This document shows positions 7,323-46,552 of a DNA stretch of 64,000 nt, piece after piece. The position numbers and the translations under genes are program-made. Source of the stretch: Barthelona sp. PCE (Eukaryota). How positions within the stretch are numbered: position 1 is the first letter of the stretch; the number at the start of each line of letters is the position of its first letter. The stretch spans positions 1,240,001 through 1,304,000 of the forward strand of contig JAUFOR010000008.1 of the NCBI GenBank assembly GCA_040285745.1, given 5' to 3'. The notes beneath the pieces are model-generated. The model was not told the DNA's origin. It did not search any database and was given only the letters and a program-made list of their open reading frames with translations.

Positions 7323-7976
7323 TTACTTCCTACGCTTCAGTTCGTTGGCCAACCAGTCAAAGCCCAAATAAATTGAACGAACATCATTCAATGCAGAGCA
7401 AGGTTGAGCAAACCAAGTTTGAGTGAGTTTGTCAAGCTCGACAACCTTAACAACTTCTCTGGGATCAAGAGCATCGGGGAGATCTTGCTTGTTGATGAGA
7501 AGCAACACAGTACATTCTGCCAAACGAGGATCGGACAAAGACTCATGTAATACACACTTGACACATCCTTCTTCACAACCGACACCACCACAGTTAAGAC
7601 GGTTGACATCAGCTGAGTCGATAACGAAGACTACGGCATCTGTATCATCATAATAGTAGTTCCAAAGGTTTCTAAATCTAAAAATTAGTTAGGGTCATAT
7701 TATTATCAGTACACAAATAACTTTGTTAAATGCTCTGGCTTAAGGTATTCCATACGTCTTTTGGCCACCAATATCGTAACAATTAATCTTGAGAGAACCG
7801 ATTTCCAGATCAGTTGCTGAAAACCCAACAGTAATTCTTGTGTCAATGCTAGATTCATCGACGTACTTGAGACGCTTGATGATTGCGGTCTTACCAGCAC
7901 TGTCCAGACCAATTAGAACGATTTTGGCTTCAATTCTCGATAATGCGTTCAAAACTCTTGAAATTAACTTTCCCAT
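7323..7976 (-). CDS. ARF/ARL-family small GTPase, 191 aa, two exons (7976-7756, 7677-7323)
   Basis: MG start, GLDSAGKT, DIGGQ, NKQD, CSA motifs; splicing restores GGQKTFRNLWNYYYDDTDAVVFVIDS. Confidence 0.92.
7678..7755 (-). other. Spliceosomal intron (78 nt) in the ARF/ARL gene
   Basis: GTATGG…CCCTAACTAATTTTTAG; removal joins the two ORF halves in frame. Confidence 0.9.
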
Positions 7977-8374
7977 TGCTTCTTTTGTTGCTGTTTAAGG
8001 CTAAGAAAATAAAAATATAAAGGATAACTCCGTGTTTAAAGGGAGAAACTATTCTGCAAAGCTGAGGTTACAGTTGGAAGCATTCGCACGGTGTCACACT
8101 CCTTTAATGGCTACTCAATGATGCTAAAACCATACTTAAGTCCTTCAACGCACTTCAACAAAGAGAATGGAATATACTAAACCATTGACATATTAGCACA
8201 ATAATTAACTGGTTAACCACATTTTACTTGCATCACAGTTATCAGTTGATTCTCAGAAATTCATAGTAAGGTGAAATTGTATTGTTTTCTCCTTTTCTTC
8301 TCATAGCGAAGTTTTAACGTTCTTTTTGGATAAATTTGATAAATACACGGCATGAAAGTTCTTTGATGCAAAAT

Positions 8375-10604
8375 ATTGTTTTTCTTTTACTGAGGTATAG
8401 CAGGCAGGGGTAAAGGTCGAGATGTACAGGGGCCTAGTTGGCGAGGAAGTCAAGGGGCAGAGGCTTAGTCATGAACGCTTCACGCTCAGGGCCAACTGAT
8501 ACGAAGTGTACCGGCACGCCAGTAAACTCTTCGATGAACTCAACGATATCCTTGGCAGATTGGGGGAGCAGATCGTACTGCCTTACATCGGCAACCTCTC
8601 CAGGGCCGGGCATAGTTGTGTAAATAGGCTTGGCATCAAATTGCTGTTGAGCCGAAAAAGGAACGTGGTCCAGAATTGTGCCATCAGGAAGCTCGTATGC
8701 TGTGCAAATCTTGATCTCCTTGAACTGACTGAGGACATCTAGCATCGTTAGCGCACAGATATTGGCGCCGGAAGTTGTGAGTGAGTGCTTGAGGGCAACA
8801 AGATCGAGCCATGTACAACGTCTGGGACGACCTGTGGTTGTACCGAACTCGTTTCCAACAACACGAATTGCATCAGCGGTCTCGGATTCAATCTCTGATT
8901 CTCCAACAAGAGGGCCTGCACCAACACGAACAGAGTATACCTTGCTTACGCCGAGGATGACGTCGAGTGAGTTGGGAAGAAGACCTGTGCTCTGGGGAAT
9001 ACCAAGAGTCGTTGTGTGTGATGATGTGCAGTAGGGAGATGTGGACCAATCAATGTCGAGAAAGAAACCATTGGCGAGCTCGACGAGGATGGAGTCACCG
9101 CGGTTACTGGCTTCACGGAGCATGGCCTCAGCGCCTTCGAAGACATAGGGCATGACGTATGATCTGAGTTCCATGAACTTGTCGAAAACCTGCTGAGGGT
9201 CGAAAGGTTCGAACTCGATCTTGTGCTCGGCAGCAAGAGCGCCAAGGACGACGTTCTTGTAGCGACAAACACGGAAGATCTTCTCCTGTATGTCAGCAAC
9301 AGGCATACAAAGATCACCCATACGCATGGCACGGGAACGGGCGCACTTGTCAGCGTATGCGGGGCCGATACCGGACTTGGTTGTACCGATCTTGTTCTTA
9401 CCTGTACGGCTAGCCTCGTTAATGCAGTCCTCAGTGATGTGCCAAGGCATGATGATGTGAGCACGAGAAGAGATCTTGAGCTGCTCGGGAGTACGCTCAA
9501 TACCCAGCTCGTTGCGGGCACGCTCGAGCTCCTTTACGAGCTGAGGCATGTAGATAGCCATTCCTGCACCCATAACAGAGATGATATCGTCATGGAAAAT
9601 TGTTGAGGGAAGTAGGTGAACGTCGAATGAGATAAGCTCGTCTCCCTTCATGATCTTGATTACGTGGCCTGCGTTGTGACCACCGTTAGCACGAACGGAA
9701 TATTTGACATGAGTAGTGATGTCGTAAGATGAACCCTTCTTGGAAGGTGAACGACCCATGGATGAAAGAAGGTCAACGAACTTTCCCTTGCCCTCGTCAC
9801 CGACTTGAGCGCCGAAAGCGACGATAGAACGGGCGTTGTAAAGCTTGGAGTCCATGGGAGTAATGGTAGTTGGATGGTAATGCATAAAGTTACTAAATGT
9901 GAGTTTTTCAGGTTGAGGAGCACACAACATACGAATGAAGTAATAAAACAAAAAGCATAATACTTGTAGAAAGTATATATTCATGGCAGGTGGTCCCCTG
10001 CAAATTGGGTAAAAAACGTTAACCCACGTGTACATCTTCGTATGTACCTTGCTCAGCCGTAAAATATACAAAAATATCTATAGATGCCAACAAAAATTCT
10101 TAAAAGAGAAGATAAGTTGCTAAGAATGAGGTTAAAAAAACTTTTTTTACCCTTTTGCGAACCCTTCTTTTTTAAAGTTGTGCTGTATCGCGTACTTGAT
10201 GCAGCGATAGTGTTGATTCATGTTCCAGGGTCATATCGTAGTCTTATGAAGAAAGCTCTCTTTTTTTCCGAATATTGTAAAATCTAATGCTTCTGTGCGT
10301 GTGGTTGACTGATCTTATCCTACCCTTGCTGTTTTTTGCACGCTTCTACCTATCTATGGTGAGGATAAATTTTTTGGTTCGTATAATCGTGTGTTGTCAA
10401 CCCTAGCTGAGGTGTAAATGTCATATCCAGGCTACAATGCGAAGGAAATATTCGTTTTGACAATGTGCGCCGAGATCCTTTTTCTCGATGATTGTGTGTT
10501 CTTAGTCGTGTTTTCAGTGGCTTTGAAGCTGTAATATGGCGTGTTGCCACCACAACAGCTCTAGGTGGCAAATGACGGTGCAATATGTAAAGCAGGCAAT
10601 TCAA
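8375..10604. repeat. Left arm of a ~2.23-kb inverted duplication
   Basis: Reverse complement of 13765-15994 (paired coordinates sum to 24369); mirrored ORF tracks. Confidence 0.97.
8434..9855 (-). CDS. purA: Adenylosuccinate synthetase, copy 1 (473 aa from MDSKLY)
   Basis: GAQVGDEGKGK, GGHNAGH, IGTTKSGIGPAYADK, EFGTTTGRPRR, SVGPER; start placed at the ATG just before the conserved domain. Confidence 0.95.
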   Translation of the reverse strand: MDSKLYNARSIVAFGAQVGDEGKGKFVDLLSSMGRSPSKKGSSYDITTHVKYSVRANGGHNAGHVIKIMKGDELISFDVHLLPSTIFHDDIISVMGAGMAIYMPQLVKELERARNELGIERTPEQLKISSRAHIIMPWHITEDCINEASRTGKNKIGTTKSGIGPAYADKCARSRAMRMGDLCMPVADIQEKIFRVCRYKNVVLGALAAEHKIEFEPFDPQQVFDKFMELRSYVMPYVFEGAEAMLREASNRGDSILVELANGFFLDIDWSTSPYCTSSHTTTLGIPQSTGLLPNSLDVILGVSKVYSVRVGAGPLVGESEIESETADAIRVVGNEFGTTTGRPRRCTWLDLVALKHSLTTSGANICALTMLDVLSQFKEIKICTAYELPDGTILDHVPFSAQQQFDAKPIYTTMPGPGEVADVRQYDLLPQSAKDIVEFIEEFTGVPVHFVSVGPEREAFMTKPLPLDFLAN

Positions 10605-10675: not shown

Positions 10676-11229
10676 TAGAAACAATAAAAATTATTCAAGA
10701 AAAGTTGAGGATCATTTTTCACTACATACACCAGATTTTAAGCATCTGCTACCCCCATACTCATCGTTCACTGCTGGTCCTGATCAGGAAGATCCTGCAA
10801 ATGATTTTGAACAGAGAATGGAAGAACGTACTTTATTTAATTCTTATACTGAAGTAGGTTTATTGACGTCGGGGAACGCTCACGTGGGAAGGCTCGCCTT
10901 CACGTGTAGAGGGTGTTTCGTCCGGGAAGTGGCCTAAAACCTTTTTTTTTTAAAACCGTATCGGGTCCTACGGACACCTACTACACATGACGGTTCGCTT
11001 CGTCCCCCTCCGCTGTTTACTACCTCAAGTATAAAGTCTGAAGGCTAGCGCCTGTATGTCACCATCACAATTTTTCGGTTTCCTATTTACTTATTTGTTC
11101 TATTTAGTAATTGAAATACTGCTATTTTCAGATGAATGGAATTCCAAACTATGGTAGCCCCGTATGCGGCACCATATCCGAACTTAGATCTCTGTTCCCG
11201 TTAACATGGACTTGACTGGAAGAAAATCA
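10676..11229. ncRNA. Candidate structured non-coding element, copy A (conserved flanks around a branched hairpin core at 10844-11034)
   Basis: Collinear similarity to 44666-45262 including a 31-nt identical block; no shared reading frame; self-complementary core. The repeat is directly visible, RNA function is inferred. Confidence 0.6.
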
Positions 11230-11259: not shown

Positions 11260-13437
11260 CTATATGACTGCTGTATTGTTCATCATTGCATGATAATTGG
11301 GCATATGATACTCAACGATGGACGCCTCTGCCATAAACGAAGGAAGGTGGAACCTTTCCACAGTGGGATTCGTTGATTCTGGGTCTTGCTCAACGTTGTA
11401 TGTTTTCAACACCATTGTCTTGGTTTCTTCTTCGTAAATAACTTCCTGAACAACGTTATTAGGCATATTTACGCTGTGAATATCGTTGCCAATATTTGGT
11501 AAAATAGTATTTGTAAAAAATCGCATTTCAATAACGCCATTAACAATGGATACCTTATTAATACCTTGATCTACTTGAATGTACGAATCACCTATGAAAT
11601 TAAAGAAACAGTTACCATCCACTTCATCAACATCTGAATATTTATATATCAAAACGGGTTCCAAAAAAATTCCTGTTGACCAATCTAAACAATGCATATA
11701 CTGTTCCTCACCATCATTATTGTATTTATATGTAACAAAGAGCTGGTGGTCAGCTGTATCTGTTAATGGATGATGACAGAAGACTACATTCGAAACATCA
11801 TCGCCATGATGAAAAGTGATGTGCTTTTGAACCTCAACATCATTATTATTGATCAGCAATTGTAAAAAATGTGTTGAATTAGTACAACTAACACACACAG
11901 AACTTCCAGTGACTGAAGGCTTGCAATCATTTATGTACTCATTTGGTGGAAGCTCCAAAACTTTTGTATTACCAAGATAACCTTGACAAACATTTTCATT
12001 ATACTCAATAAAAAATGGTAACCCAAGAACTAAGCTAACATAACTCAAAAAGCCATCATTTTCAAAAGGAGTTATTATTGGTTTTGATTCTGAGCCTTCC
12101 CAGTGTATTTTAACTATTTCTGGATCTGGTCTTGCATCACACTGTGCAATCATAAAGAAATGCTCTTCCTCAAATGGGTGCATCGATAGTTCTCTGTAAT
12201 TCTTTTCGAACATTAAACTATCGTTAGTCATAACGCTTTTATGTGTGACGATTCTTTTTTCTTTGAAGTAAAAGTAACACTGTCTTTTCATAGTGCTGTC
12301 TGTAAAATGTGCTGTACCATCATACATAACTCTGTGAGGCCAAAAATTTTGCAATCGAATCACCTCGTTATTGACATTTCTAAACTTTATAGGACCAAAA
12401 ACACCCGTTGCATTACAAGTTCCTAAAAACTGGCATTGTTCATTATGAAAAGAATTCGCCAAGTCAAGGTGTTTTATATTATCAAATTGAATATATTCAC
12501 TGCATAAATCACCAGTTGACGACTTAAGCTCCCCGTTTTCAATATGAACAACAGTACAAATAGAGCTATTATAGAAAAGCGCAGAAAATTCATCTTGTGT
12601 CAATGTGAACAAGGAAAAACAAGAACAGTAAGATATTTTCAACTCTACTAACTGTGGGAATCTTTCCAATAGGTCAACACGGTTTCGTTTACGGTCAAAA
12701 ATGATCAATTCTTCAAATCCTCTGCCAAATGAGGCAAAACAAACACATTCAGCATTGTCACATCCAATACAGCTTTGATTATGGACACCTTCTAGCTGTA
12801 CGATATCCGGCTCATGAGCCTCGTCCATATCATCTACGCAGAAATTGTAGTGGAATAACGAAAAACCATTTTCATAATTGCTCATTAATACATATTCAAT
12901 GGAACAATTGCTGTTGGTGGTGTAATGGTTGTATTCTCCAAGGCACCGGTACCGTTCTGTTAGAATATTGAGAATGTAACAATGAGTCGATTCTCCATTC
13001 TGGTGTTCTTCATCAACCTCTGCAATAGAAAAAAAAATGTGGTTCTCATCTAATGGAACAAATTCGCTCGATACATATTTTTGTAAATTATCCAAATCAT
13101 CAAAAGGGAAACGAATCTTTCTGTTTGTGTGTTCATCACTGTTAATTTCGTTGAAATACAGGATTTCAAGATCAGTTAATTGATTATTTTCGCTAAAATG
13201 CTGTTCAACGATCATATATCCTGCTCCAGCTTTTCGCTTGTAATAATACTGAAGTGATTCACACGTTTCTTCAACATATCCACAAAATTCTTCCCCATCA
13301 ACAGCATCAATGAGATTGTGTAAATGAGTGTCTTCTCTAGTTTTGACCATTCTAACACCCTGACCTTCAAAAATAATTTGCCCCTCGGGAAAGGCCCCGA
13401 TGATAAGGTCATCCTCGAATTTACGGATACGAGGCAT
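11260..13437 (-). CDS. Orphan AT-rich, beta-strand-like protein (725 aa)
   Basis: Long ATG-initiated ORF with no recognisable family motif. Confidence 0.85.
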   Translation of the reverse strand: MPRIRKFEDDLIIGAFPEGQIIFEGQGVRMVKTREDTHLHNLIDAVDGEEFCGYVEETCESLQYYYKRKAGAGYMIVEQHFSENNQLTDLEILYFNEINSDEHTNRKIRFPFDDLDNLQKYVSSEFVPLDENHIFFSIAEVDEEHQNGESTHCYILNILTERYRCLGEYNHYTTNSNCSIEYVLMSNYENGFSLFHYNFCVDDMDEAHEPDIVQLEGVHNQSCIGCDNAECVCFASFGRGFEELIIFDRKRNRVDLLERFPQLVELKISYCSCFSLFTLTQDEFSALFYNSSICTVVHIENGELKSSTGDLCSEYIQFDNIKHLDLANSFHNEQCQFLGTCNATGVFGPIKFRNVNNEVIRLQNFWPHRVMYDGTAHFTDSTMKRQCYFYFKEKRIVTHKSVMTNDSLMFEKNYRELSMHPFEEEHFFMIAQCDARPDPEIVKIHWEGSESKPIITPFENDGFLSYVSLVLGLPFFIEYNENVCQGYLGNTKVLELPPNEYINDCKPSVTGSSVCVSCTNSTHFLQLLINNNDVEVQKHITFHHGDDVSNVVFCHHPLTDTADHQLFVTYKYNNDGEEQYMHCLDWSTGIFLEPVLIYKYSDVDEVDGNCFFNFIGDSYIQVDQGINKVSIVNGVIEMRFFTNTILPNIGNDIHSVNMPNNVVQEVIYEEETKTMVLKTYNVEQDPESTNPTVERFHLPSFMAEASIVEYHMPNYHAMMNNTAVI

Positions 13438-13764: not shown

Positions 13765-15994
13765 TTGAATTGCCTGCTTTACATATTGCACCGTCATTTG
13801 CCACCTAGAGCTGTTGTGGTGGCAACACGCCATATTACAGCTTCAAAGCCACTGAAAACACGACTAAGAACACACAATCATCGAGAAAAAGGATCTCGGC
13901 GCACATTGTCAAAACGAATATTTCCTTCGCATTGTAGCCTGGATATGACATTTACACCTCAGCTAGGGTTGACAACACACGATTATACGAACCAAAAAAT
14001 TTATCCTCACCATAGACAGGCAGAAGCGTGCAAAAAACAGCAAGGGTAGGATAAGATCAGTCAACCACACGCACAGAAGCATTAGATTTTACAATATTCG
14101 GAAAAAAAGAGAGCTTTCTTCATAAGACTACGATATGACCCTGGAACATGAATCAACACTATCGCTGCATCAAGTACGCGACACAGCACAACTTTAAAAA
14201 AGAAGGGTTCGCAAAAGGGTAAAAAAAGTTTTTTTAACCTCATTCTTAGCAACTTATCTTCTCTTTTAAGAATTTTTGTTGGCATCTATAGATATTTTTG
14301 TATATTTTACGGCTGAGCAAGGTACATACGAAGATGTACACGTGGGTTAACGTTTTTTACCCAATTTGCAGGGGACCACCTGCCATGAATATATACTTTC
14401 TACAAGTATTATGCTTTTTGTTTTATTACTTCATTCGTATGTTGTGTGCTCCTCAACCTGAAAAACTCACATTTAGTAACTTTATGCATTACCATCCAAC
14501 TACCATTACTCCCATGGACTCCAAGCTTTACAACGCCCGTTCTATCGTCGCTTTCGGCGCTCAAGTCGGTGACGAGGGCAAGGGAAAGTTCGTTGACCTT
14601 CTTTCATCCATGGGTCGTTCACCTTCCAAGAAGGGTTCATCTTACGACATCACTACTCATGTCAAATATTCCGTTCGTGCTAACGGTGGTCACAACGCAG
14701 GCCACGTAATCAAGATCATGAAGGGAGACGAGCTTATCTCATTCGACGTTCACCTACTTCCCTCAACAATTTTCCATGACGATATCATCTCTGTTATGGG
14801 TGCAGGAATGGCTATCTACATGCCTCAGCTCGTAAAGGAGCTCGAGCGTGCCCGCAACGAGCTGGGTATTGAGCGTACTCCCGAGCAGCTCAAGATCTCT
14901 TCTCGTGCTCACATCATCATGCCTTGGCACATCACTGAGGACTGCATTAACGAGGCTAGCCGTACAGGTAAGAACAAGATCGGTACAACCAAGTCCGGTA
15001 TCGGCCCCGCATACGCTGACAAGTGCGCCCGTTCCCGTGCCATGCGTATGGGTGATCTTTGTATGCCTGTTGCTGACATACAGGAGAAGATCTTCCGTGT
15101 TTGTCGCTACAAGAACGTCGTCCTTGGCGCTCTTGCTGCCGAGCACAAGATCGAGTTCGAACCTTTCGACCCTCAGCAGGTTTTCGACAAGTTCATGGAA
15201 CTCAGATCATACGTCATGCCCTATGTCTTCGAAGGCGCTGAGGCCATGCTCCGTGAAGCCAGTAACCGCGGTGACTCCATCCTCGTCGAGCTCGCCAATG
15301 GTTTCTTTCTCGACATTGATTGGTCCACATCTCCCTACTGCACATCATCACACACAACGACTCTTGGTATTCCCCAGAGCACAGGTCTTCTTCCCAACTC
15401 ACTCGACGTCATCCTCGGCGTAAGCAAGGTATACTCTGTTCGTGTTGGTGCAGGCCCTCTTGTTGGAGAATCAGAGATTGAATCCGAGACCGCTGATGCA
15501 ATTCGTGTTGTTGGAAACGAGTTCGGTACAACCACAGGTCGTCCCAGACGTTGTACATGGCTCGATCTTGTTGCCCTCAAGCACTCACTCACAACTTCCG
15601 GCGCCAATATCTGTGCGCTAACGATGCTAGATGTCCTCAGTCAGTTCAAGGAGATCAAGATTTGCACAGCATACGAGCTTCCTGATGGCACAATTCTGGA
15701 CCACGTTCCTTTTTCGGCTCAACAGCAATTTGATGCCAAGCCTATTTACACAACTATGCCCGGCCCTGGAGAGGTTGCCGATGTAAGGCAGTACGATCTG
15801 CTCCCCCAATCTGCCAAGGATATCGTTGAGTTCATCGAAGAGTTTACTGGCGTGCCGGTACACTTCGTATCAGTTGGCCCTGAGCGTGAAGCGTTCATGA
15901 CTAAGCCTCTGCCCCTTGACTTCCTCGCCAACTAGGCCCCTGTACATCTCGACCTTTACCCCTGCCTGCTATACCTCAGTAAAAGAAAAACAAT
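13765..15994. repeat. Right arm of the ~2.23-kb inverted duplication
   Basis: Reverse complement of 8375-10604 with at least three substitutions (14017, 14021, 14182). Confidence 0.97.
14514..15935 (+). CDS. purA: Adenylosuccinate synthetase, copy 2
   Basis: Translation identical to copy 1. Confidence 0.95.
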   Translation: MDSKLYNARSIVAFGAQVGDEGKGKFVDLLSSMGRSPSKKGSSYDITTHVKYSVRANGGHNAGHVIKIMKGDELISFDVHLLPSTIFHDDIISVMGAGMAIYMPQLVKELERARNELGIERTPEQLKISSRAHIIMPWHITEDCINEASRTGKNKIGTTKSGIGPAYADKCARSRAMRMGDLCMPVADIQEKIFRVCRYKNVVLGALAAEHKIEFEPFDPQQVFDKFMELRSYVMPYVFEGAEAMLREASNRGDSILVELANGFFLDIDWSTSPYCTSSHTTTLGIPQSTGLLPNSLDVILGVSKVYSVRVGAGPLVGESEIESETADAIRVVGNEFGTTTGRPRRCTWLDLVALKHSLTTSGANICALTMLDVLSQFKEIKICTAYELPDGTILDHVPFSAQQQFDAKPIYTTMPGPGEVADVRQYDLLPQSAKDIVEFIEEFTGVPVHFVSVGPEREAFMTKPLPLDFLAN

Positions 15995-16157
15995 TTTGTT
16001 TCGCCTCTCCTCTCTTCATTGCTTATGTGCACGTATTATAGGGTGCACATATCTTGGCCTCAACTGTTTTTGAGAATACTCAGTTGATTGTAGTAAACTT
16101 GGATTTTGGGAATTACTCCTTTTCAACAACTTTCAACAACTTACTTTGTGTATAGAA

Positions 16158-22626: not shown

Positions 22627-23844
22627 ATGATCACCACGGTGAATTACATCTTAAACACTGACACATTCCAGTTTGAGGAGCAGGAGATCTGGACCGACGA
22701 CAATGGGTTCTTTTTCACCGATGAAAATGCAGCTAGTGAGATTCCACAGGAATACGTTCTCCCTAAGGATGTTACAGGGGATGCTATGCTTTCTGAGTTT
22801 GAAGACAACCTTAAAAAGTTGAGGCTTGATAATATTCCGCTGAATTCAAGAACCGTTGATCTTGCACTTCCAGTGCGTCAGTTCAAGCGTACAGCATCGG
22901 CTCTAACCAGGCTTCCCGTCGCATCTGAGCCCGAGGAAGATCCTGATGTAGTCCAGGAGTTGCCGGTTAAAGATGAGTCACCCGTCATAAGAGAGTTTCA
23001 CAATCTTGACGAAGACGAGATGGAAGAGCGGTGGAACGATTGGGTTCCTGCACCAGGTGATCCAGTATGGATATATTGGTGTGATAGTTTCGCTCAGTTC
23101 TATCCGGGTACAGTTAAAGAAGTCCAGGATGACCCGGTGGATACACTCCATGTGTCGTATGATGACTGGGGCACAGACTGGGACGAATGGATCTCTCTTG
23201 ACCGCAGTTATGTGATGGGTGTGAAGCATGTTGATAAGCTTATCACAGATTTCAACGTCAGGAACCAGATGGAAGGGATTGGGACACAGAAGACTCGATC
23301 AGAGCCAGTCATTAGGAGGACAAGCCATAGATCAGTATCAAATGTGTTGAAAAAAAATTTTGCCTTCAGCCACTGCGTAGTTTCATTTTTTGCAAATGAC
23401 AGGAACGGGCCCATATGTATCAGTGCGTTTACGATCCGTGAGCTCATCAGTTTCCTTAAAGACAAGGAGGTTTCCAGCAAAAAGATCTCAAGTTTGTTAG
23501 AGTTGTTCGTAAACGAGTTTAAAGAGTTTATTGCTGATTGTATTGAGAGCTTCAAGACCGGGTATGCGGATTACATCGATGTACATGAAGAAAAGAAAGT
23601 AATGAGAGATGCTTATGCACTTGTAATGGAAAATTATGAATTCCTTCGATCGTTGGCAGTATCACGCTACGATGGTCTCCCAGCCGAATACATGCTCGTC
23701 ATTACTGCGCTATCCATGTCAGAGTCTAATGCATCAGATTTCAAGCGTTTTCATTCAATAGCACCTGTCTTTGAAGAATTTCTGTCACAGGAATCTTATC
23801 ATCCAGCTGCTTATACACTGTCTTTATTCTCGCTAGAACCTTGA
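22627..23844 (+). CDS. Tudor/chromo-barrel domain protein
   Basis: PGDPVWIYW…FYPGTVKEV…LHVSYDDWGTDWDEWI. Confidence 0.7.
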   Translation: MITTVNYILNTDTFQFEEQEIWTDDNGFFFTDENAASEIPQEYVLPKDVTGDAMLSEFEDNLKKLRLDNIPLNSRTVDLALPVRQFKRTASALTRLPVASEPEEDPDVVQELPVKDESPVIREFHNLDEDEMEERWNDWVPAPGDPVWIYWCDSFAQFYPGTVKEVQDDPVDTLHVSYDDWGTDWDEWISLDRSYVMGVKHVDKLITDFNVRNQMEGIGTQKTRSEPVIRRTSHRSVSNVLKKNFAFSHCVVSFFANDRNGPICISAFTIRELISFLKDKEVSSKKISSLLELFVNEFKEFIADCIESFKTGYADYIDVHEEKKVMRDAYALVMENYEFLRSLAVSRYDGLPAEYMLVITALSMSESNASDFKRFHSIAPVFEEFLSQESYHPAAYTLSLFSLEP

Positions 23845-24915
23845 TTTGCTGCTGCGGCGTGAGTTAGGTTTTGAAGTAATGGTTGTCGAAACAGCTCCAC
23901 CATTGTTGTTTTCTGCCGTCATCTCAGCGATAACAACCTTTCTCTGCCAAGTCTCAACTTGCTTCTTCAGGGTTTGCAGGTCAGCATTGATCTGTATATA
24001 TTCATAAATGGAAGGACCCTCACCATGCTCTGATTGCAATTTTAGGGTAGCAGCCTCTGTCTCCAAGGAATCATTTTGTTGCATGATGCTATCAATATCG
24101 TCAGTAAGCTTAGAGATTAGCTGTTTCTTAGTGTTGATCTCTTTCTTTAACTTTGTATTGTCAACTAGTAGCACGCTAAGTTTATCCTTCAGAGTATTAA
24201 GTGCTTGAGTCATATTACCACTAATAAGTTTCAAACCGAGTAGCTCTGCGTTCTTCTGCTCAAGAGTGTCAGCGAACTGTCTTGTTTCGATACGTAACTC
24301 CTCAAAATCAATTTGTTGAAAGTTTTCTCCAAAGTTTTGCTTGTTATGCAGTTGAAACTTTGTTTTTTTGATATTCTTACGTAAATTGCTGATCTTTAAA
24401 CGCATTTTCTCGATCTTTGACTTCTTTCCCTTGAGTAAATTTTTGTAATAACGCTTCACTAATTCAATTTCACTATCTGAACCCAAAATCTTCTCCAGGT
24501 CTATTGTCTCTTTCTTAATCTCAGTGCATCGCTGCTTGCAGCTCTCGAGCATTGCAATAAGCCTGCTACGGAACTGTTCTCCTTGAACCTTGACACTTTC
24601 ACCGTCATCACGAAGATCATCGAGTTCCTTCTGAATTGTTTGGTATTTTTGATCCAGGTTGAGGAAGAAGCGGCCCTTCTTACGAATCTCGCTCTCATTA
24701 ACGGCTGCAACTTGAGCAGCATGTCTCTGAAGGTATGATTCAAATAGAGTATTTTCACGCTGCAAGAACTCATTGTTTCGCATGATAGCGTCGATCTTTT
24801 CCTCCACAATAGGTAAATCTTCATTATACGGAAGGTACAATTCAAAAACCGATTTTGAAGACTTTGCAGAGTATACTGATGGTGCAGATCTGTTTCCACC
24901 GCCAACTACAGACAT
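23833..24915 (-). CDS. CCDC113: Cilia/flagella-associated coiled-coil protein CCDC113/CFAP263-like (DUF4201)
   Basis: ENTLFESYLQR, LNLDQK, KIEKMRLK, GENFQQIDFEELRIE, KNAELLGLK. Confidence 0.8.
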   Translation of the reverse strand: MSVVGGGNRSAPSVYSAKSSKSVFELYLPYNEDLPIVEEKIDAIMRNNEFLQRENTLFESYLQRHAAQVAAVNESEIRKKGRFFLNLDQKYQTIQKELDDLRDDGESVKVQGEQFRSRLIAMLESCKQRCTEIKKETIDLEKILGSDSEIELVKRYYKNLLKGKKSKIEKMRLKISNLRKNIKKTKFQLHNKQNFGENFQQIDFEELRIETRQFADTLEQKNAELLGLKLISGNMTQALNTLKDKLSVLLVDNTKLKKEINTKKQLISKLTDDIDSIMQQNDSLETEAATLKLQSEHGEGPSIYEYIQINADLQTLKKQVETWQRKVVIAEMTAENNNGGAVSTTITSKPNSRRSSKSRF

Positions 24916-26692: not shown

Positions 26693-26893
26693 GACTACTT
26701 AAAAGTCTACGAAAAAAAGAACAAGGTGGGAAATAGTTATGCGCCCATCGAAAACTCCAATTTCAAGCGATATAACAAAATTTTACTTAGAAACAGCCGT
26801 ATATGGGGTGTTTCAATGGAGAAACACGTGTCCGTTGTGAATGCGGACATTATACGAAAAAACCTGCCTTTGATCTTTTCCACCTTTATTTAA

Positions 26894-38012: not shown

Positions 38013-38433
38013 TTATTTGAATAAATCAGTGCTTTTAATGTTGTTTATGTTTTTTTCTCCTGATGCATACTTGCACATCTGGTTATTCGACCCATGTTAC
38101 AACGTGCAATGTATTTTGTGGCTGTTTGCAATTGGGTTGTTGTGTTTTCAAAAGATAGGATTTAGGAAAGCGATATCTCAGTTTTGATGAAGATACGGTC
38201 AGCTTTACTCTCCAGATATGTGCTTTGTGGGCCAGGTTATTTGGGTAAATTCATGCATTTGGGTTTTTTATTGGTTGTCCTCATTTTAGTCATAAATCAT
38301 GTGGATTTTCGAGTTGTATGGACATATAGTTCAAATAATCCACATTCCAATATCGTAATATCATGGATACATACTACCTAACGATTTAGTAATTGTGTCA
38401 TTTTTTTTATCCCTTTTCACGCATCGCTGTTTC

Positions 38434-41130
38434 ATGAAATACTTTTCTGTTGTTAAAAATAGTTTTGAAGAGGTTAAAATAGCTTTCCTGAGGTATTGTG
38501 AGGATAAATCACTGAAATGGAAAAAATCAGATGGGATTGAAGGGATTAATGATCAATGCTTTTACATTTATACTAAAGAGGCTAATAACAACTATTTAGA
38601 TTTAGACACTACCGAAAGACTTAAGTATATTTACCAGAACGACAAAGTTTTTGGAGTTATCAAACCAGAAGAATTTGAAAATCATTGTATTGTTATATTA
38701 CGTGATTCAGAAGGTATTAAAATCCTTAAGGATCTATTTTTAGACTTCGATATTGATTTTCCACGGTTTTATGCTGCTAAAATGGGAATGTTCAATGACC
38801 AAATTGCCACAATTACCGAGTACGAACAACTTCAGTGGTCAACTATTAAAAAGAAACCGTTCAAGATGGTAAAGAGCACTTCTGATTCGGAGGGATTGGA
38901 TCTTGAGGAGAGTTCTTTGGGTTTATACAGTGAAATACACTTTAAAATCAATACTGAAGTTGAAGAAAATGCGCAAAGTCAGAAACAGAATGCAGAAGAA
39001 TTTTTTTGTGACTCGTACAGAAAAGAAGCTATATACACACCGTATGCAATTGGTTTTAACCATACTGAAACCAGTGATCAATTGATAAGAAAAATTATTT
39101 GTTGTTATAACAATGAGCAACTGCCACTTGATATTGTACAGCCATGTTTAAAGAAAGTTTCGCTTGAAAATGATCATTTCCTTAGCTATTTTAGCTGTGT
39201 TGATGAAGTAGAGCTGAATATTCCATCTGAAATGATTGGTGAGGATAACTCAGTTTATTGTACCAATAAGATAGGTTTTTTATCATTATTTGCTGCAATG
39301 GTTGCAGTAGAGAGAGATATTGATTCGTCTGAGGATCTAATTATCAATTTAAGTACTGTCTTGGAATATTTTGATAAGTTCAAACAGATTGCAGAATGTT
39401 TTAGAAAACATTCCGAAAATTGTTTTTTTATTGCCAAATTTGAAGGAATTCAAACAAGACCAATTAGGTTTTCAACAGCTGATGGGGCTCCTCTACAACA
39501 GAATTTAATTCAGAATCCAATTAGGGCCATTAGTCCCTACCATCATGGAGGAGCAAACGGATTTGATACAACGTTTCGATCTAAACCCATTGAAGCAGCG
39601 GATGATTTAAGAAGTTGGGTTAATAGTATTTTGGATTTAAGTCATCCTAATTTCTTTATTCTAAGCTGTGTTTTAGGAATGTTGATGAAGCATTTAAAAG
39701 TTGGTGGGAAAATCTTTTTGCATAATGTTACTGTTCTTCATCGAGTTGATAACGTATGTGTTGTTTATTCTGATGGTGTATGGAGAAGATTTACGAATAA
39801 TTTCATTGAAAATATTAATGATAGGGTCGAACAAATATTTGAACTGAGCAGAAGAATATTCGAAGATATTTTTCCTGAAGATAGCATCCCTTTATATCAA
39901 TCTAAGAACATGATGAAAAGAAAGGAAGATGGAAAAACCACTAAAGTTCCTAGAATTGGAAAAAATTGGTTACCAAAGTTTAAACATAAACATATGGCAG
40001 AGAGTGAAGTCAACTGTACTATTGCTTTATGCAAGCAAAATGTTTTGCTTGATAAAGATTGTGTTTATCCACTTGACGGTAAAGAAAATTTTGAGCTTTG
40101 TGATATATTATTATTTGATCGAACAAACAGAAAACAGTATTTCCTTCATGTCAAGAACGATAAAGATGACGAAAAAGTTTTTAATCAGTTACACACCTCT
40201 TATGATATGATCAATTCATCCTTTTTCAAAATGAATGATGAGTTGAAGGATAAGGTAGAAAACAGTATCAAAAATCGATTAACATCTACTAATGATGATT
40301 CTAATACATTTATCACTAATTCCGACTTAAATCCAGATAAGTATTGTTTTGGAGTTGTTTTTGTTACTAATCTTCCGACTAGAGTGTTTGAAGGAGAAAG
40401 TATAAGTCTAAAGCTAAGTGTATTGCGTGCAAAAAGAATCATTGGTAATCGGTTTATACTGGGAACTTTTCCCGCTCAACATGCAGAGTACAGATGGATT
40501 GAAAAAAAAATACCATGCATCAGACCAATTATAAGAATGCCCAATTTAAGTGATTACAACCTTATAATAAGTAAGAAGTTTTGTAATGCAATTCTGGATG
40601 ATGAAACAATCTTCTATGATTTGTTGAAAGATGTTAACGACAATCGTTTATTGAACAGTAACTTAGTTTATGTGCTTGATAGATCGATTAATGAGCGTGA
40701 TAAGTATTCAATGTTGGTGTTAGAGTTTAAGCATGCTTTTTCTTGTAATAATGGACAGAGTTTACTACATTTTTTTGTTCCCATTGTTTGCATGATGGTT
40801 GAGGGCAAGAAGCAGTTTATTCCATTCATGCACTTCCATTCGATGTGTCCGTTGGAATACAATCCTCATCTTAATTTATCAACAGTTATAAGTGATTTGG
40901 TAGAGAGAAATAGACACATACAAAAAAAAACAAAAACACCAAAAGGCTGTATGTTTTACGATATTTCCAATGAAAAATGGAAAAATGAACTATTTGAGAT
41001 TGTAGGTGCTGTCAAACACATTAATGATCATTCTAAGTTTTTGCATCCGTTCAAATTGAATCCTTCACTTAATCGTGCCCGTAGAATACAATCTGATGGT
41101 ATTGACCCAAAAATTCAAGCAACTCAATAA
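38434..41130 (+). CDS. AT-rich 898-aa protein with a TIGR04141/DUF6119-like putative nuclease domain
   Basis: DGVWRRFTNNFIENIN…ESEVN…LLDKD…FELCDILL…FLHVKN…VFNQLHTS. Confidence 0.6.
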   Translation: MKYFSVVKNSFEEVKIAFLRYCEDKSLKWKKSDGIEGINDQCFYIYTKEANNNYLDLDTTERLKYIYQNDKVFGVIKPEEFENHCIVILRDSEGIKILKDLFLDFDIDFPRFYAAKMGMFNDQIATITEYEQLQWSTIKKKPFKMVKSTSDSEGLDLEESSLGLYSEIHFKINTEVEENAQSQKQNAEEFFCDSYRKEAIYTPYAIGFNHTETSDQLIRKIICCYNNEQLPLDIVQPCLKKVSLENDHFLSYFSCVDEVELNIPSEMIGEDNSVYCTNKIGFLSLFAAMVAVERDIDSSEDLIINLSTVLEYFDKFKQIAECFRKHSENCFFIAKFEGIQTRPIRFSTADGAPLQQNLIQNPIRAISPYHHGGANGFDTTFRSKPIEAADDLRSWVNSILDLSHPNFFILSCVLGMLMKHLKVGGKIFLHNVTVLHRVDNVCVVYSDGVWRRFTNNFIENINDRVEQIFELSRRIFEDIFPEDSIPLYQSKNMMKRKEDGKTTKVPRIGKNWLPKFKHKHMAESEVNCTIALCKQNVLLDKDCVYPLDGKENFELCDILLFDRTNRKQYFLHVKNDKDDEKVFNQLHTSYDMINSSFFKMNDELKDKVENSIKNRLTSTNDDSNTFITNSDLNPDKYCFGVVFVTNLPTRVFEGESISLKLSVLRAKRIIGNRFILGTFPAQHAEYRWIEKKIPCIRPIIRMPNLSDYNLIISKKFCNAILDDETIFYDLLKDVNDNRLLNSNLVYVLDRSINERDKYSMLVLEFKHAFSCNNGQSLLHFFVPIVCMMVEGKKQFIPFMHFHSMCPLEYNPHLNLSTVISDLVERNRHIQKKTKTPKGCMFYDISNEKWKNELFEIVGAVKHINDHSKFLHPFKLNPSLNRARRIQSDGIDPKIQATQ

Positions 41131-41355: not shown

Positions 41356-43740
41356 ATGTCCGTTATGACTCTTATTACCCTTTTACAATTTTCGATTGCT
41401 GACTTCTCAGCAAGCAGCCTCTGTAATCACCTTCGAGGCTGTTTAACAAACAATAACGATTACAAACCTAATATCCACAAGGTGCAGTGCATTAGCAACT
41501 CAGATCTTTGTTTGGATAAATTTTCTTCCCTATTTACCGACTGGGACGACTATGGTGATCTCGATGATGGCATTACACGCGAGATATACCTGTTTTTTGC
41601 TGCTAATTCAGATGAGTTAGTTCTTGCTCTGTTACCTTCTTTAGAAGTGGATTTTTTCAGTGGATTACCTCCTAACAATGAGGTTTTTGCTCGTATAATG
41701 CGAGAATTGGCCCTGATTCCGTACGGATCACACCCTACCTGCTTTCTTGGAAAAACTGAAATACCCTTTGACGATGTTCTTGAAAAAGCCAAGCCAATCA
41801 GCACATGTTGCATTGAATATTCTCAGCCACAGCGCTTTACACTGATAGATGACCCTTCTACCTCAATGGATATCTCTCAAGCGCTTATAACATCTACTAG
41901 TATCAAGCTAACAGTGCAGAGCACCGATTTTTACCGGTGTTGTTACCTCATTGCTTTCTGTCAGAAGAATCAGCGCTCCGTTACTAATCAAAACGATGTT
42001 TATGCAAAATTAGCCTCTGCCTTGCATAATAAGTGCTTTTCCAGCGTTAGCGAACTTAAAGCATGGAATATCAGCACATTCTGGGCAAAAAAAAAAAAAT
42101 TTCTTCACTCTGGGAGGTTTTGCATTCGTAATCAAGTTGCAATTATGCTTAATATATCTTGTGCCTATCTCTGCCTCGGTGATATCAGCCGCAATCAAGC
42201 TGTTGCTGATTTTTTGAAAGGCAATTTTAAATGCACGGAGTGGAATGTAAGCGTTCGCCCAAAGTTTTCTACCAATGTTTTGGAGCTGAAAATGAAGTTC
42301 CCTTTGTGCTCAAACAATTCCAACTTTTTGGATTATCTAGCAAGCAATGGTTGTTTTGATGACTACATTGTTACTGAATTTTCTGGCATTTTTCCGAAGA
42401 AGTTTTTAACTTGCAAAACATCATTTAGTCCCGAAAATCTTCTGAAATGGCAGAGAAATATCTTAAAGAATAGCTTTGATCAACGTTTGAAGCAGCTTTT
42501 TTGGGATAATACCTCTGCTGAGTGCCGTGAATTAATGAACAACTATTTCCTCCCTGAACACATTCGTTCAGCAAAACTTTCCGATATTACCATAGACTCA
42601 TCACACTTTCCATTTTTTCAAAACCATTCAATACGAAATGTTGTTCACTTCACTGAATGTATGGGAAATAAGGTTGCTGGTCAACTCGTGAAGTCTATCA
42701 ATATGGATGCTGTGAGTGTTATAAATCTCAGAGACAAAGACTTAAAGCTTCAATCATCCAACTCACAAAGCGTTGAACTCTGTGATATAGCTGAGTTCAA
42801 AGATGGACTGCTTTTCCTGCACATGGTTAAGAACATTAAAAAATGCAGGGAAGTCATTCCTCAAACAGCAAAAGTGATTAGCCTCTTTCAAACAGAGCCC
42901 ACCAGATTTCTTTCTGTGTTGAAGTCTGTACTGCTGACTGCAGGTGCCAGCAAAGTTGGTGGTTTTGATTTCGAGTTGATTGATGCGCTTGAGCTGAAGG
43001 ATATTCGATTTGTAGTCAGTCTTTTTGGATTAAGGACCGAACTCTCCACGGACTGTATATCTTTGTTGTTGACGCTGAACACTGCTTCTGGTGGCCTTGT
43101 CCATGTAACGCACTTGCCAACTCAGGAACAAGTCTACGTGTACGGTAGTGTTCCTTCAAGAACTGATGTTTTCCACTTCAGTCGTAGTCTAGATCATGTG
43201 GACAACTGGACAACTCTCAAGCAAGTTACGCTGATCTGCAGGCTTCTTTATGATTTCGATGTGTTTTCGTGTCCAAAGTACGGAAATTTGGAAGTGAGGG
43301 ATATTATGTATTACTCTGATGATATCATTAATGATGATGATGTGATTATGCTGCTTTTCTGTGTCCAGCTGCAGGGTAGGGAAGAACAGTACTATGTTCC
43401 ATTGTTTAAGCTGAAAGGTTACCATTTCGCATTCAACAATCACTCAATTCCATTGATTTCAACCAATTCGTTCAATGCAAGCTGCCAATCCTTGGCAGAA
43501 GCAGCAAAGACATCTTTTAAGGAGATGTATAAACAATCAACGGAGAATATTCAAGTAACTTATGCTGGTTATGTACCGCACGGGAAATGCCAACATTTTA
43601 CTGCGCTTGAACCGTTCAAGTTGCGCAGCGTGCGACCCTTATCTTGCGCATCTGCACATAAGAAGGCGAATAGACAGAACCGACGTACTAAACTACGTGC
43701 ATCAAAGTGTGCATCTCGTAGATCGATGCGATCTATGTGA
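41356..43740 (+). CDS. Diverged tandem paralog (794 aa) of the preceding gene
   Basis: LRDKD…VELCDIAE…LHMVKN…VIPQ, plus shared YYVPLF/QFIPFM and PFKL C-terminal motifs. Confidence 0.55.
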   Translation: MSVMTLITLLQFSIADFSASSLCNHLRGCLTNNNDYKPNIHKVQCISNSDLCLDKFSSLFTDWDDYGDLDDGITREIYLFFAANSDELVLALLPSLEVDFFSGLPPNNEVFARIMRELALIPYGSHPTCFLGKTEIPFDDVLEKAKPISTCCIEYSQPQRFTLIDDPSTSMDISQALITSTSIKLTVQSTDFYRCCYLIAFCQKNQRSVTNQNDVYAKLASALHNKCFSSVSELKAWNISTFWAKKKKFLHSGRFCIRNQVAIMLNISCAYLCLGDISRNQAVADFLKGNFKCTEWNVSVRPKFSTNVLELKMKFPLCSNNSNFLDYLASNGCFDDYIVTEFSGIFPKKFLTCKTSFSPENLLKWQRNILKNSFDQRLKQLFWDNTSAECRELMNNYFLPEHIRSAKLSDITIDSSHFPFFQNHSIRNVVHFTECMGNKVAGQLVKSINMDAVSVINLRDKDLKLQSSNSQSVELCDIAEFKDGLLFLHMVKNIKKCREVIPQTAKVISLFQTEPTRFLSVLKSVLLTAGASKVGGFDFELIDALELKDIRFVVSLFGLRTELSTDCISLLLTLNTASGGLVHVTHLPTQEQVYVYGSVPSRTDVFHFSRSLDHVDNWTTLKQVTLICRLLYDFDVFSCPKYGNLEVRDIMYYSDDIINDDDVIMLLFCVQLQGREEQYYVPLFKLKGYHFAFNNHSIPLISTNSFNASCQSLAEAAKTSFKEMYKQSTENIQVTYAGYVPHGKCQHFTALEPFKLRSVRPLSCASAHKKANRQNRRTKLRASKCASRRSMRSM

Positions 43741-43901
43741 TGGACTGTGAGGCAAGTAGTTTACTTCGTGGGTGTGATTAGGATTGTTTCCTTCCGCAAC
43801 TGTCTGTTTATAAGTAAATATTTATTTTTATATAAAACCTTTTTTCAAATAAGTACACTGAGAGGCACCCACATGGGTCTATAAGCTTTATTAAGCACAG
43901 A

Positions 43902-44366: not shown

Positions 44367-44665
44367 TGTACTTATAAGTTAAACAAACGAAAAAGGTTGA
44401 ATAATGTAGAAGAAGGAAAAAAAATTAAACTTCTTTGTAAAACGACATAATTTCTACATTCACGAGACAAAGCAACTCAATACGCCAGTTTCAACAGTGA
44501 AGATATGCAAAATGCAAACATATAGAGAAGAATTTCTTTAAGAGTATCCAAACAAGATTCTATTAACATGTAGACTCACAATTTCCCATATCATATGGAA
44601 AAAATGTCAAATTTACTGTTTAAAAAATCATTTAAAATGTTAAAGCATTTTAAACTCAATTTACT

Positions 44666-45262
44666 TAGAAACAGAATTTTTTTAAGCATGGGTAAAAAGT
44701 TTGAGGCGTTTTTCAAAGAATCTAGCAAAAAAAGAGCTGCAGAATCAGGAATTGGTATCGTTCACGAATGACCCTAATACGAAGATTCTGCAATTGATCT
44801 TCAAGAGATAATTTAACAGAACGTATGCAGGTGTATTTCAATTTCTCACCTCGTAGGAGGTTGTAAATTTACTTCGGAGTTAGACACTTGTACGGGAGTT
44901 GCGAGCTCCCTCGAGTGCTGTGCTTGCACTGAGAATTGTTCTAGAGCCCTTTTTTTTAAATAAAAGGGGAGAAAGAAATGATGTAAGTACTCACAGAGTA
45001 CAAGAGGGAAGATCGCGTGTCTACTCCTCAGTAGATTTACTCCTACGAAATAGCGTGTTATTCACAAGCGTGCCATTTTAAGGTTTCCTATTTATTTTAT
45101 TTGTACTATTTAGTAATTGAAATACTACTATTTTCAGATGTATGTTCCAAACTGTGAAGAAGGTACCCGTTTGCGGCACCATATCCGAACTTAGATCTCT
45201 GTAAAGAATCTGTTTATTCTCCCTTACTACCCGTTAACATGGATGAGACTGGAAGAAAATCA
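44666..45262. ncRNA. Candidate structured non-coding element, copy B (branched hairpin core at 44851-45048)
   Basis: Same flanking blocks as 10676-11229; TCGTAGGAG…CTCCTACGA outer stem with several nested helices. Confidence 0.6.
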
Positions 45263-45541: not shown

Positions 45542-46552
45542 ATGATTTATGCTGTCAACGCGTGTATAAACTTCGCTATTCTCGTCTTGACATCGGTCTA
45601 CTCCATCTTTATCATTCACAAGCTGAAGAGCCGAAATGAAAATCCTCTCACAAAGTTTTCTGCAAGCGCTAAAATAACGGCTTCGATTGTACTCATCATT
45701 TCAGCCTTTGTTCTAGTTGTAGTATTTGTGTTAGACTTTTTTAACTTCACAACACTTTTCTTCCTTTGTTTGATTGCAGCAATCGGTATCCCTGCTGTTA
45801 TGCTCTTCATATTCTATCCCCTCTCAACGATTTTAACCAGCAAAAAGATTAAAATTCCAGGTCTTGGACAGGTATTTATTGCAAACACTGTTGGTTTCTT
45901 TATTTCTGCAGCAATCATTGCGGTTTTCCTCGTGTACAGGAAGAATGAGTTCATCATAATGTTTGTTGTATGCTCAATTTGTTGTTATTTCATTTCCAAT
46001 CTAAATTTTGCATCTACATTATCACTTTTCGTCTTTGTTAGTGTATTCTCAATCTACGAGCTCATTCAGTACAACCTCACCCCTTCGAAGCACCTTTGCT
46101 CCATTGCCTGTGAGTGGGACACATACCCTCCCGTATTGCCTACATCTCTCTACCTTTCCATTCAGGGTACATCTGCCTTCAGTATCACGTCAGTGATCGT
46201 CACGGGTGCGGTCCTTGCCCACTTCCGAAAGCTTGACGAGAAGCTCAACGGTAGATTCCTCATTAAGGGTTACGTAGGGTTGTGTGTAGCATTTGCTGCA
46301 GGTTTATCTTTGGCAATGTATACCAATCACGGCTTGCCCTTCCTGCCCTTCTCTGCCGTCATGCTGCTCATCGTCCTTGTTTTGGAGAATGTGAGTTTGA
46401 GAAAGCGTGGAAAAGTACACAAAACTTTGGATAAGGTGGAGACGAACAAACTAGTTACAGAAGCTGAAATGGATCCTATTAGTATTGAAATCGAGGTTCA
46501 GAGCGATGTTGAAGTGGAGGACGATATTTCAGAAATTTCAAAACATCGTTAA
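45542..46552 (+). CDS. Signal-peptide-peptidase/presenilin-like membrane protein lacking the catalytic motifs
   Basis: Multi-pass topology with FSIYEL, LPTSL, FSITSVIVTG and HGLPFL at the positions of YD, LPxKL, LGxGD and QPAL. Confidence 0.6.
   Translation: MIYAVNACINFAILVLTSVYSIFIIHKLKSRNENPLTKFSASAKITASIVLIISAFVLVVVFVLDFFNFTTLFFLCLIAAIGIPAVMLFIFYPLSTILTSKKIKIPGLGQVFIANTVGFFISAAIIAVFLVYRKNEFIIMFVVCSICCYFISNLNFASTLSLFVFVSVFSIYELIQYNLTPSKHLCSIACEWDTYPPVLPTSLYLSIQGTSAFSITSVIVTGAVLAHFRKLDEKLNGRFLIKGYVGLCVAFAAGLSLAMYTNHGLPFLPFSAVMLLIVLVLENVSLRKRGKVHKTLDKVETNKLVTEAEMDPISIEIEVQSDVEVEDDISEISKHR

Follow-up and report, generated by a model that had tools for sequence, protein, structure and literature searches.

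A 64,000-nt stretch of the genome of Barthelona sp. PCE (the window) carries an unannotated unit of ~0.5-0.65 kb in two copies, A (10763-11229) and B (44757-45262), as revealed by self-comparison. The core of copy B (44851-45048) is a 198-nt imperfect inverted repeat that forms a long hairpin. This hairpin is real, and its fold is far beyond chance. The unit is best explained, tentatively, as a non-coding RNA in which the arms of the hairpin need only pair, with the apex and the flanks carrying specific sequence. The features are listed in Table 1.

Table 1. Features of the two copies of the unit (positions in the window)
Feature	Position	Strand	Remarks
Helix TCGTAGGAG / CTCCTACGA	44851-59 / 45040-48		
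Helix GTAAATTTACT / AGTAGATTTAC	44863-73 / 45030-40		one G.T
Helix GGAG / CTCC	44876-79 / 45024-27		
Helix TAGACAC / GTGTCTA	44881-87 / 45017-23		
Helix CTTGTAC / GTACAAG	44887-93 / 44998-45004		
Helix GTGCTTGCA / TGTAAGTAC	44920-28 / 44982-90		two G.T
Side hairpin GGGAGTT-GCG-AGCTCCC	44894-44910		alternative pairing
T8 run, apex of copy B	44950-44957	+ (A8 on minus)	inside apex segment 44930-44975
Outer helix, left arm	44833-44846		encloses the B hairpin
Outer helix, right arm	45112-45125		inside the conserved right block; identical in copy A
Left block, copy B	44757-44848		77% to A 10763-10845; 63/82 identical, z 9.5
Left block, copy A	10763-10845		
Right block, copy B	45082-45262		92% to A 11076-11229; 138/150 identical, z 21.7
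Right block, copy A	11076-11229		
Core, copy A	10846-11034		homologous position, weak pairing; T10 run 10942-10951
Stretch of 26 nt in B only	45202-45227		holds a small AGAAT/ATTCT stem
GTATGC, 5' splice-site look-alike	44825-44830	+	8 nt before the outer helix; aligned A sequence GTACTT
ATTTTCAG, 3' splice-site look-alike	45130-45137	+	past the outer helix, then ATG; conserved in A at 11125-11132

The arms of the B hairpin comprise ~70 pairs in the minimum-energy folds, of which ~65 are Watson-Crick and 1-5 are G-U. The six helices, the side hairpin and the T8 run had all been picked out in a preliminary description of this DNA, and each is present in the sequence, as is the GAAGGCTCGCCTTC that it placed in copy A (10888-10901). 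The side hairpin is absent from the minimum-energy fold of either strand of B, because GCGAGCTCCCTC pairs instead with GAGGGAAGATCGC of the right arm. The outer helix (14 nt, 93%) forms in folds of the extended B region. A k-turn-like UGAUG/CUGA pair is found in B and is not conserved in A. There is no second hairpin of the A/B type elsewhere in the 64-kb window.

The fold of 44851-45048 has a calculated energy of -76.4 kcal/mol as plus-strand RNA (z -5.72), -70.7 kcal/mol as minus-strand RNA (z -7.83) and -36.2 kcal/mol as DNA (z -5.71), and in each case none of 200 shuffled sequences folds as well. The window was also ranked as 2554 windows of 200 nt, taken from both strands with a 50-nt step and with minimum free energy regressed on composition; the B hairpin occupies first place (minus) and second place (plus). 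Against the same background the core of copy A folds no better than expected as plus-strand RNA (z -0.91, with 35 of 200 shuffles folding as well; rank 1329) or as DNA (z +0.19), and modestly better as minus-strand RNA (z -3.16, rank 101).

Conservation between the two copies is a mosaic, with the flanks and the apex kept, and the arms and the spacer at chance level. Around the T-run at the apex 28 of 38 positions are identical (74%, z 5.3). The left arm (z 1.0), the right arm (z 1.9) and the spacer (z 1.1) align between A and B no better than shuffled sequences. Within the right block the conserved segments are parted by indels of 1, 3, 4 and 26 nt, and the block has no significant fold on either strand (z +0.98 to -1.07). 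Marginal homology continues to the left of the unit as far as ~10617 and 44576 (score 24.5 against a shuffle maximum of 23), and direct comparison gives none between A and B to the right. Comparison of stop-to-stop ORFs and of all six frames reveals no reading frame common to A and B on either strand. Exactly one relative of unit B is present within the 64-kb window. A 23-mer from the right block gives no matches in metagenome, viral and prokaryote-genome collections, and blastn finds no unit-like DNA in 80 metagenome loci with TCTP relatives (best protein identity 37%). Self-comparison of the window reveals no target complementary to segments of the arms.

Between A and B the apex and flanks align beyond chance and the arms do not, and the B arms still form their ~70 pairs; the pairing of B has therefore been kept or remade while its sequence changed. 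To that extent the compensatory pairing proposed in the preliminary description is borne out, but selection at the RNA level is not demonstrated. An alignment of A and B made with MAFFT does give a common consensus fold, though a weak one on both strands: 32 pairs at -17.5 kcal/mol on the plus strand, with 12 pairs changed on both sides, and 34 pairs at -12.2 kcal/mol on the minus strand, with 15 so changed. When the partners are slid as a control, 0-3 pairs are changed on both sides. The counts of doubly changed pairs are biased upward because the structure is derived from the same two sequences, and two sequences are too few for a proper covariation test. Since copy A folds poorly as plus-strand RNA and DNA, and modestly on the minus strand, a common, selected fold is not demonstrated, and selection on the B fold is judged from the sequence to be plausible. 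Paired changes can also arise without selection, by template switching in replication, described in PMC8794818 as a source of hairpins and seeming compensatory changes.

This leads to the most serious alternative, a rather unlikely one, that the hairpin is a quasi-palindrome of DNA without RNA function, in a dispersed repeat or relic. Template switching or intra-strand repair centred on the T-run would keep the arms of B complementary or make them so again, and A would be decaying. That B folds equally well as DNA is as expected for such an origin, and so are the equality of its two strands once G-U pairs are disallowed, the strand symmetry of the G-U-type mismatches in A, and the lack of a significant palindrome in A. 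The genome moreover duplicates and disperses DNA, as shown by a 2233-bp inverted duplication and by a family with at least 33 paralogues. A neutral relic should however decay evenly, and here saturation of the arms contrasts with conservation at the apex and in both flanks; the centre of a palindrome is not normally its constrained part. The hairpin is internal to the unit rather than at its ends, and there are two copies only within 64 kb. Inspection by eye for MITE or foldback ends finds no terminal inverted repeats and no target-site duplication common to both copies; AATTG flanks B only, not A. Should the palindrome act at the level of DNA only, it would be a clean case of paired hairpin changes without RNA-level selection, and a useful caution for covariation claims made from sequence.

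We prefer the reading as a non-coding RNA, to which several observations lead. The B hairpin is the top structural outlier on both strands. The unit sits in one of the two longest gene-free gaps of a compact genome, and its edge falls at the edge of the inverted duplication. Conservation is mosaic, the indels of the right block are not all multiples of three, and A and B have no common frame. The B arms pair despite having lost detectable similarity to those of A, and through the outer helix the structure reaches into the right block, which is conserved. The unit would be transcribed into an RNA whose arms are free to change in sequence as long as they pair, and this pairing would be kept by selection and not by a mutational mechanism. 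The sequence-specific parts would be the run of U at the apex (of A, should the minus strand be the one transcribed) and the flanks, above all the right block of 150-180 nt. The apex and flanking blocks could bind protein or pair with another RNA, and the hairpin next to the conserved module may serve for structure, for stability or for processing of the RNase III type. A search of the window with Rfam 15 gives no matches at the gathering score. At E values up to 10 there are chance-level matches only, none of which lies on the hairpin or is common to A and B, and a tRNA search finds nothing.

The strand of such an RNA is less well defined. The preliminary description had counted four G-U positions on the plus strand of the B helices, and took them to point to plus-strand transcription. 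An excess of G-U pairs on the plus strand of B is indeed present, but the minimum-energy fold contains five and not four. The deduction itself is not supported: the counts for the plus and minus strands are 5 versus 1 in B, and 8 versus 9 in A. Having five of six G-U pairs on the plus strand is not significant (two-sided binomial p ~0.22), and the richness of the plus strand of B in G (51 G, 35 C) makes G-U pairs by chance more likely on that strand. When G-U pairs are forbidden the minimum-energy folds of the two B strands are equal (-70.4 and -69.7). Nor does folding of both strands favour plus, since by z-score the minus strand folds at least as well; in A as in B the minus strand has the more extreme score (-7.83 versus -5.72 in B, -3.16 versus -0.91 in A). 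The strand signal is therefore slight in B and missing from A, and the z-scores run against it.

Other features give no clearer answer. An internal T8 run would stop RNA polymerase III on the plus strand, and this argument, also made in the preliminary description, does not decide between the strands. Signals from the base composition at unpaired positions are mixed. The sequence [AT]GTAAA resembles the AGTRAA-type polyadenylation signal of Giardia, and is found within 60 nt past the stop codon in 11 of 34 ORFs, where ~5% is expected. In each of the two units it is present on either strand, also inside the palindrome, and thus provides no choice of strand. The balance leans to the plus strand if B alone is functional, and to the minus strand if both copies are.

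The window is compact and intron-poor, with 33 long ORFs and a two-exon Arf-like gene, and it encodes the ciliary coiled-coil protein CCDC113/96. The two units fill its two longest gene-free gaps (1175 and 1224 nt), the other gaps being mostly 14-600 nt. Packing is tight. The convergent ORFs 22627-23844 (plus) and 23833-24915 (minus) overlap by 12 nt (23833-23844), and several other convergent pairs are 14-26 nt apart. Unit B lies between the divergent genes for TCTP (minus) and an orphan protein (plus). The annotated neighbour protein of B starts at 45542 and has no upstream exon; this ORF (45542-46552, plus) encodes a predicted membrane protein of 336 aa that matches only itself at E values up to 0.001 in a collection of 5.8 billion proteins. 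A second strong predicted hairpin of ~140 nt with a perfect central palindrome is located at 43669-43808 (region 43641-43900, z -4.48). The stop codon of ORF 41356-43740 lies within it, as does the gap between that ORF and the convergent TCTP gene, and its sequence is unrelated to copies A and B. A 35-nt match (74%) with the word ATTT(T)ACTTAGAAACAG, reading CTGTTTCTAAGTAAA on the minus strand, links 44640-44674, to the left of unit B, with 26762-26796, in the gap upstream of the chaperonin gene; from its sequence, the word may mark a 3'-end signal context or be due to chance.

Unit A lies between tandem minus-strand genes, and its right block ends ~30 nt from the stop codon of a 725-aa minus-strand ORF (11260-13437). 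This ORF and copy A occupy the 3160-bp spacer of the inverted duplication, the arms of which (8372-10604 and 13765-15997; 2233 bp) differ by four mismatches and have sharp ends. The repeat doubles a complete adenylosuccinate synthetase ORF (8434-10035 minus, 14334-15935 plus), the two proteins being 100% identical; it could stem from a genuine, recent duplication or be an artefact of assembly. The left edge of unit A coincides with the inner edge of the repeat (10604/10605), consistent with a discrete unit that the inverted duplication did not include.

The hairpin and the outer helix of B could instead belong to a structured spliceosomal intron on the plus strand (44825-45137), bringing GTATGC and TTTTCAG together, with copy A dead; this is improbable. 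The helix enclosing the B hairpin is preceded at 8 nt by GTATGC and followed at 12 nt by ATTTTCAG, and the genome does have introns beginning with GTATGT or GTATGG. Two were deduced from reading frames, one of 46 nt in the TCP-1 chaperonin gene (26556-26511, minus; GTATGT...TTAACATTTAG) and one of 78 nt in the Arf-like GTPase gene (7755-7678, minus; GTATGG...CTAACTAATTTTTAG; exons 7740-7994 and 7323-7688), and both have a GTATG[TG] 5' site and a YTAAC branch site. A further candidate of 74 nt is located at 38316-38389 (plus), upstream of the ORF at 38434. Passages of PMC6679479 describe long introns of Giardia, Spironucleus and Trichomonas in which folding puts the splice sites 25-45 nt apart; in B the single-stranded distance between the sites would be ~20 nt, below the published range. 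Coding context is also missing, as each of the three frames has a stop codon in the 30 nt that precede 44825, and past 45137 there is no common ORF. The introns of this genome place YTAAC 8-12 nt before YAG, but none precedes the CAG at 45135-37 or at 11130-32. Copy A has GTACTT in place of the 5' site and lacks the outer helix. The 78-nt intron is itself unstructured (z +1.05), and thus this lineage shows no need for such stems.

It is equally doubtful that the unit is a cis-regulatory module of DNA in the divergent region between TCTP and the orphan gene, acting as a promoter or as a nucleosome-excluding poly(dA:dT) tract with factor sites. The palindrome would then be incidental, or reflect the symmetry of protein binding. 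The position of B between divergently oriented genes suits such a role, and the right block lacks an RNA-like fold. A conserved T8-T10 run and an AT-rich conserved segment such as 45090-45137 are of a kind found in promoters. Copy A, however, has a different context, lying between tandem minus-strand genes and abutting a stop codon. Identity of 92% over ~150 nt exceeds what factor sites need, and the other divergent promoters in the window, 59-513 nt in length, are without such a unit.

The proximity of copy A to the 725-aa ORF raises a further explanation, which is more improbable still, that the unit is a minus-strand 3'-flank module (3' UTR, terminator or recombination block) of a multicopy beta-propeller family. 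Copy A would still sit behind its gene (ORF 11260-13437), and B would be a solo copy that has lost its own. Unit A begins ~30 nt past the stop codon of the ORF, and of its blocks the one closest to that codon shows the highest conservation. On the minus strand the right block is followed by AGTAAA in A (11091) or by AATAAA-type words in B. The ORF has at least 33 paralogues, with 41-88% identity and very conserved N- and C-termini, and these carry barthelonid names in NCBI. Its predicted structure is all-beta and tandem beta-propeller-like (mean pLDDT 74.5), with best Foldseek matches to propellers of UTP, IFT and DDB1 type (E ~1e-9), and its sequence matches nothing in Pfam or the PDB. Yet neither the ORF nor its upstream region has left a trace next to B, and comparison of that upstream region with the B right flank reveals no homology. 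The break would have had to fall exactly at the stop codon, and the link to the family rests on a single case, the member next to copy A.

Finally, a protein-coding unit is rejected, as the six-frame comparison gives conserved peptides in every frame of the near-identical block, with frame shifts elsewhere.

Among known RNAs a number of candidates were compared and discarded. The U5 snRNA loop UGCCUUUUACY, with up to two mismatches, has 32 matches in the window where 34.25 are expected, and none lies at either apex. The likeness of CUUAGAUC...UCUGUU on the plus strand of B to the 5' region of U2, and likenesses to the U6 ACAGAGA box (on the minus strand) and to 5S rRNA, are either not conserved in A or have no covariance-model match. 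The 12-nt 3' processing motif of Giardia type, [TAC]C[CA]TT[TC][ATC][CTA]T[CTA]AA (from passages of PMC3510501), has eight matches against 7.07 expected, none of them in either unit. For telomerase RNA, neither unit has a 10-13-nt word complementary to TATATGGTCT, the telomere repeat reported for a barthelonid in passages of PMC11316075; a lone CCCTAA is present in B only. The guide (omega) RNA of a Fanzor or TnpB system was considered in view of the 33 or more paralogues of the ORF next to A, and was set aside because the predicted structure of that ORF is all-beta and propeller-like, and not that of a RuvC-type nuclease.

With the top fold of the region and a module conserved between paralogous copies in a gene-free gap of ~1.2 kb, the unit is a reasonable candidate for a new non-coding RNA. 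To our knowledge, hardly anything has been charted of the non-coding RNAs in metamonad lineages adjacent to Fornicata. The spliceosomal snRNAs of Giardia and Spironucleus escaped standard models, according to passages of PMC3510501 and PMC6679479. More specifically the unit could, though we consider this doubtful, represent a lineage-specific ncRNA family of ~0.5 kb in a deep-branching, free-living metamonad, comprising a conserved, mostly single-stranded module of ~150 nt and a fast-evolving hairpin of ~100 bp with a conserved U- or A-run at its apex. Such a family is possibly a divergent RNP RNA beyond the reach of covariance models, or a Dicer-type hairpin precursor.

The unit resembles several known systems in part. 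Foldback and MITE elements and the template-switch quasi-palindromes described in PMC8794818 share with B an imperfect palindrome with arms of ~100 nt and an AT-rich centre, but here the palindrome is internal to a larger conserved unit, and the centre rather than the arms is conserved. As in the structured introns of diplomonads and parabasalids (in passages of PMC6679479), a long stem-loop in B is bracketed by GTATG- and -CAG-like ends. The lineages are also akin as Metamonada, judged by named protein relatives; the closest named relative of one conserved protein in the window is from an unclassified metamonad (53% identity). The present unit differs from those introns in having no coding exons and no YTAAC, and in that A is without the 5' site and the outer helix. 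Stem-loop I of U5 likewise combines a long stem, interrupted by internal loops, with an apex rich in U, and by eye AAUUUUUCGG (A) and CAUUUUAAGG (B), past the hairpin on the plus strand, are like its Sm site; but there is no Rfam match to U5, and the hairpin is several times longer than in U5. Compared with miRNA precursors, the long imperfect hairpin is present in B and weakly so in A, while the search for a conserved mature-arm segment gives arms at chance (z 1.0 and 1.9); unlike in hairpin RNA and miRNA precursors, no arm segment is conserved between the paralogues A and B. In its overall plan the unit is similar to the stem-loops near snRNA and snoRNA genes that RNase III enzymes (yeast Rnt1, Dicer) cleave, and to pri-miRNA, where a long imperfect hairpin lies beside a conserved module, and the arms drift in sequence yet continue to pair.
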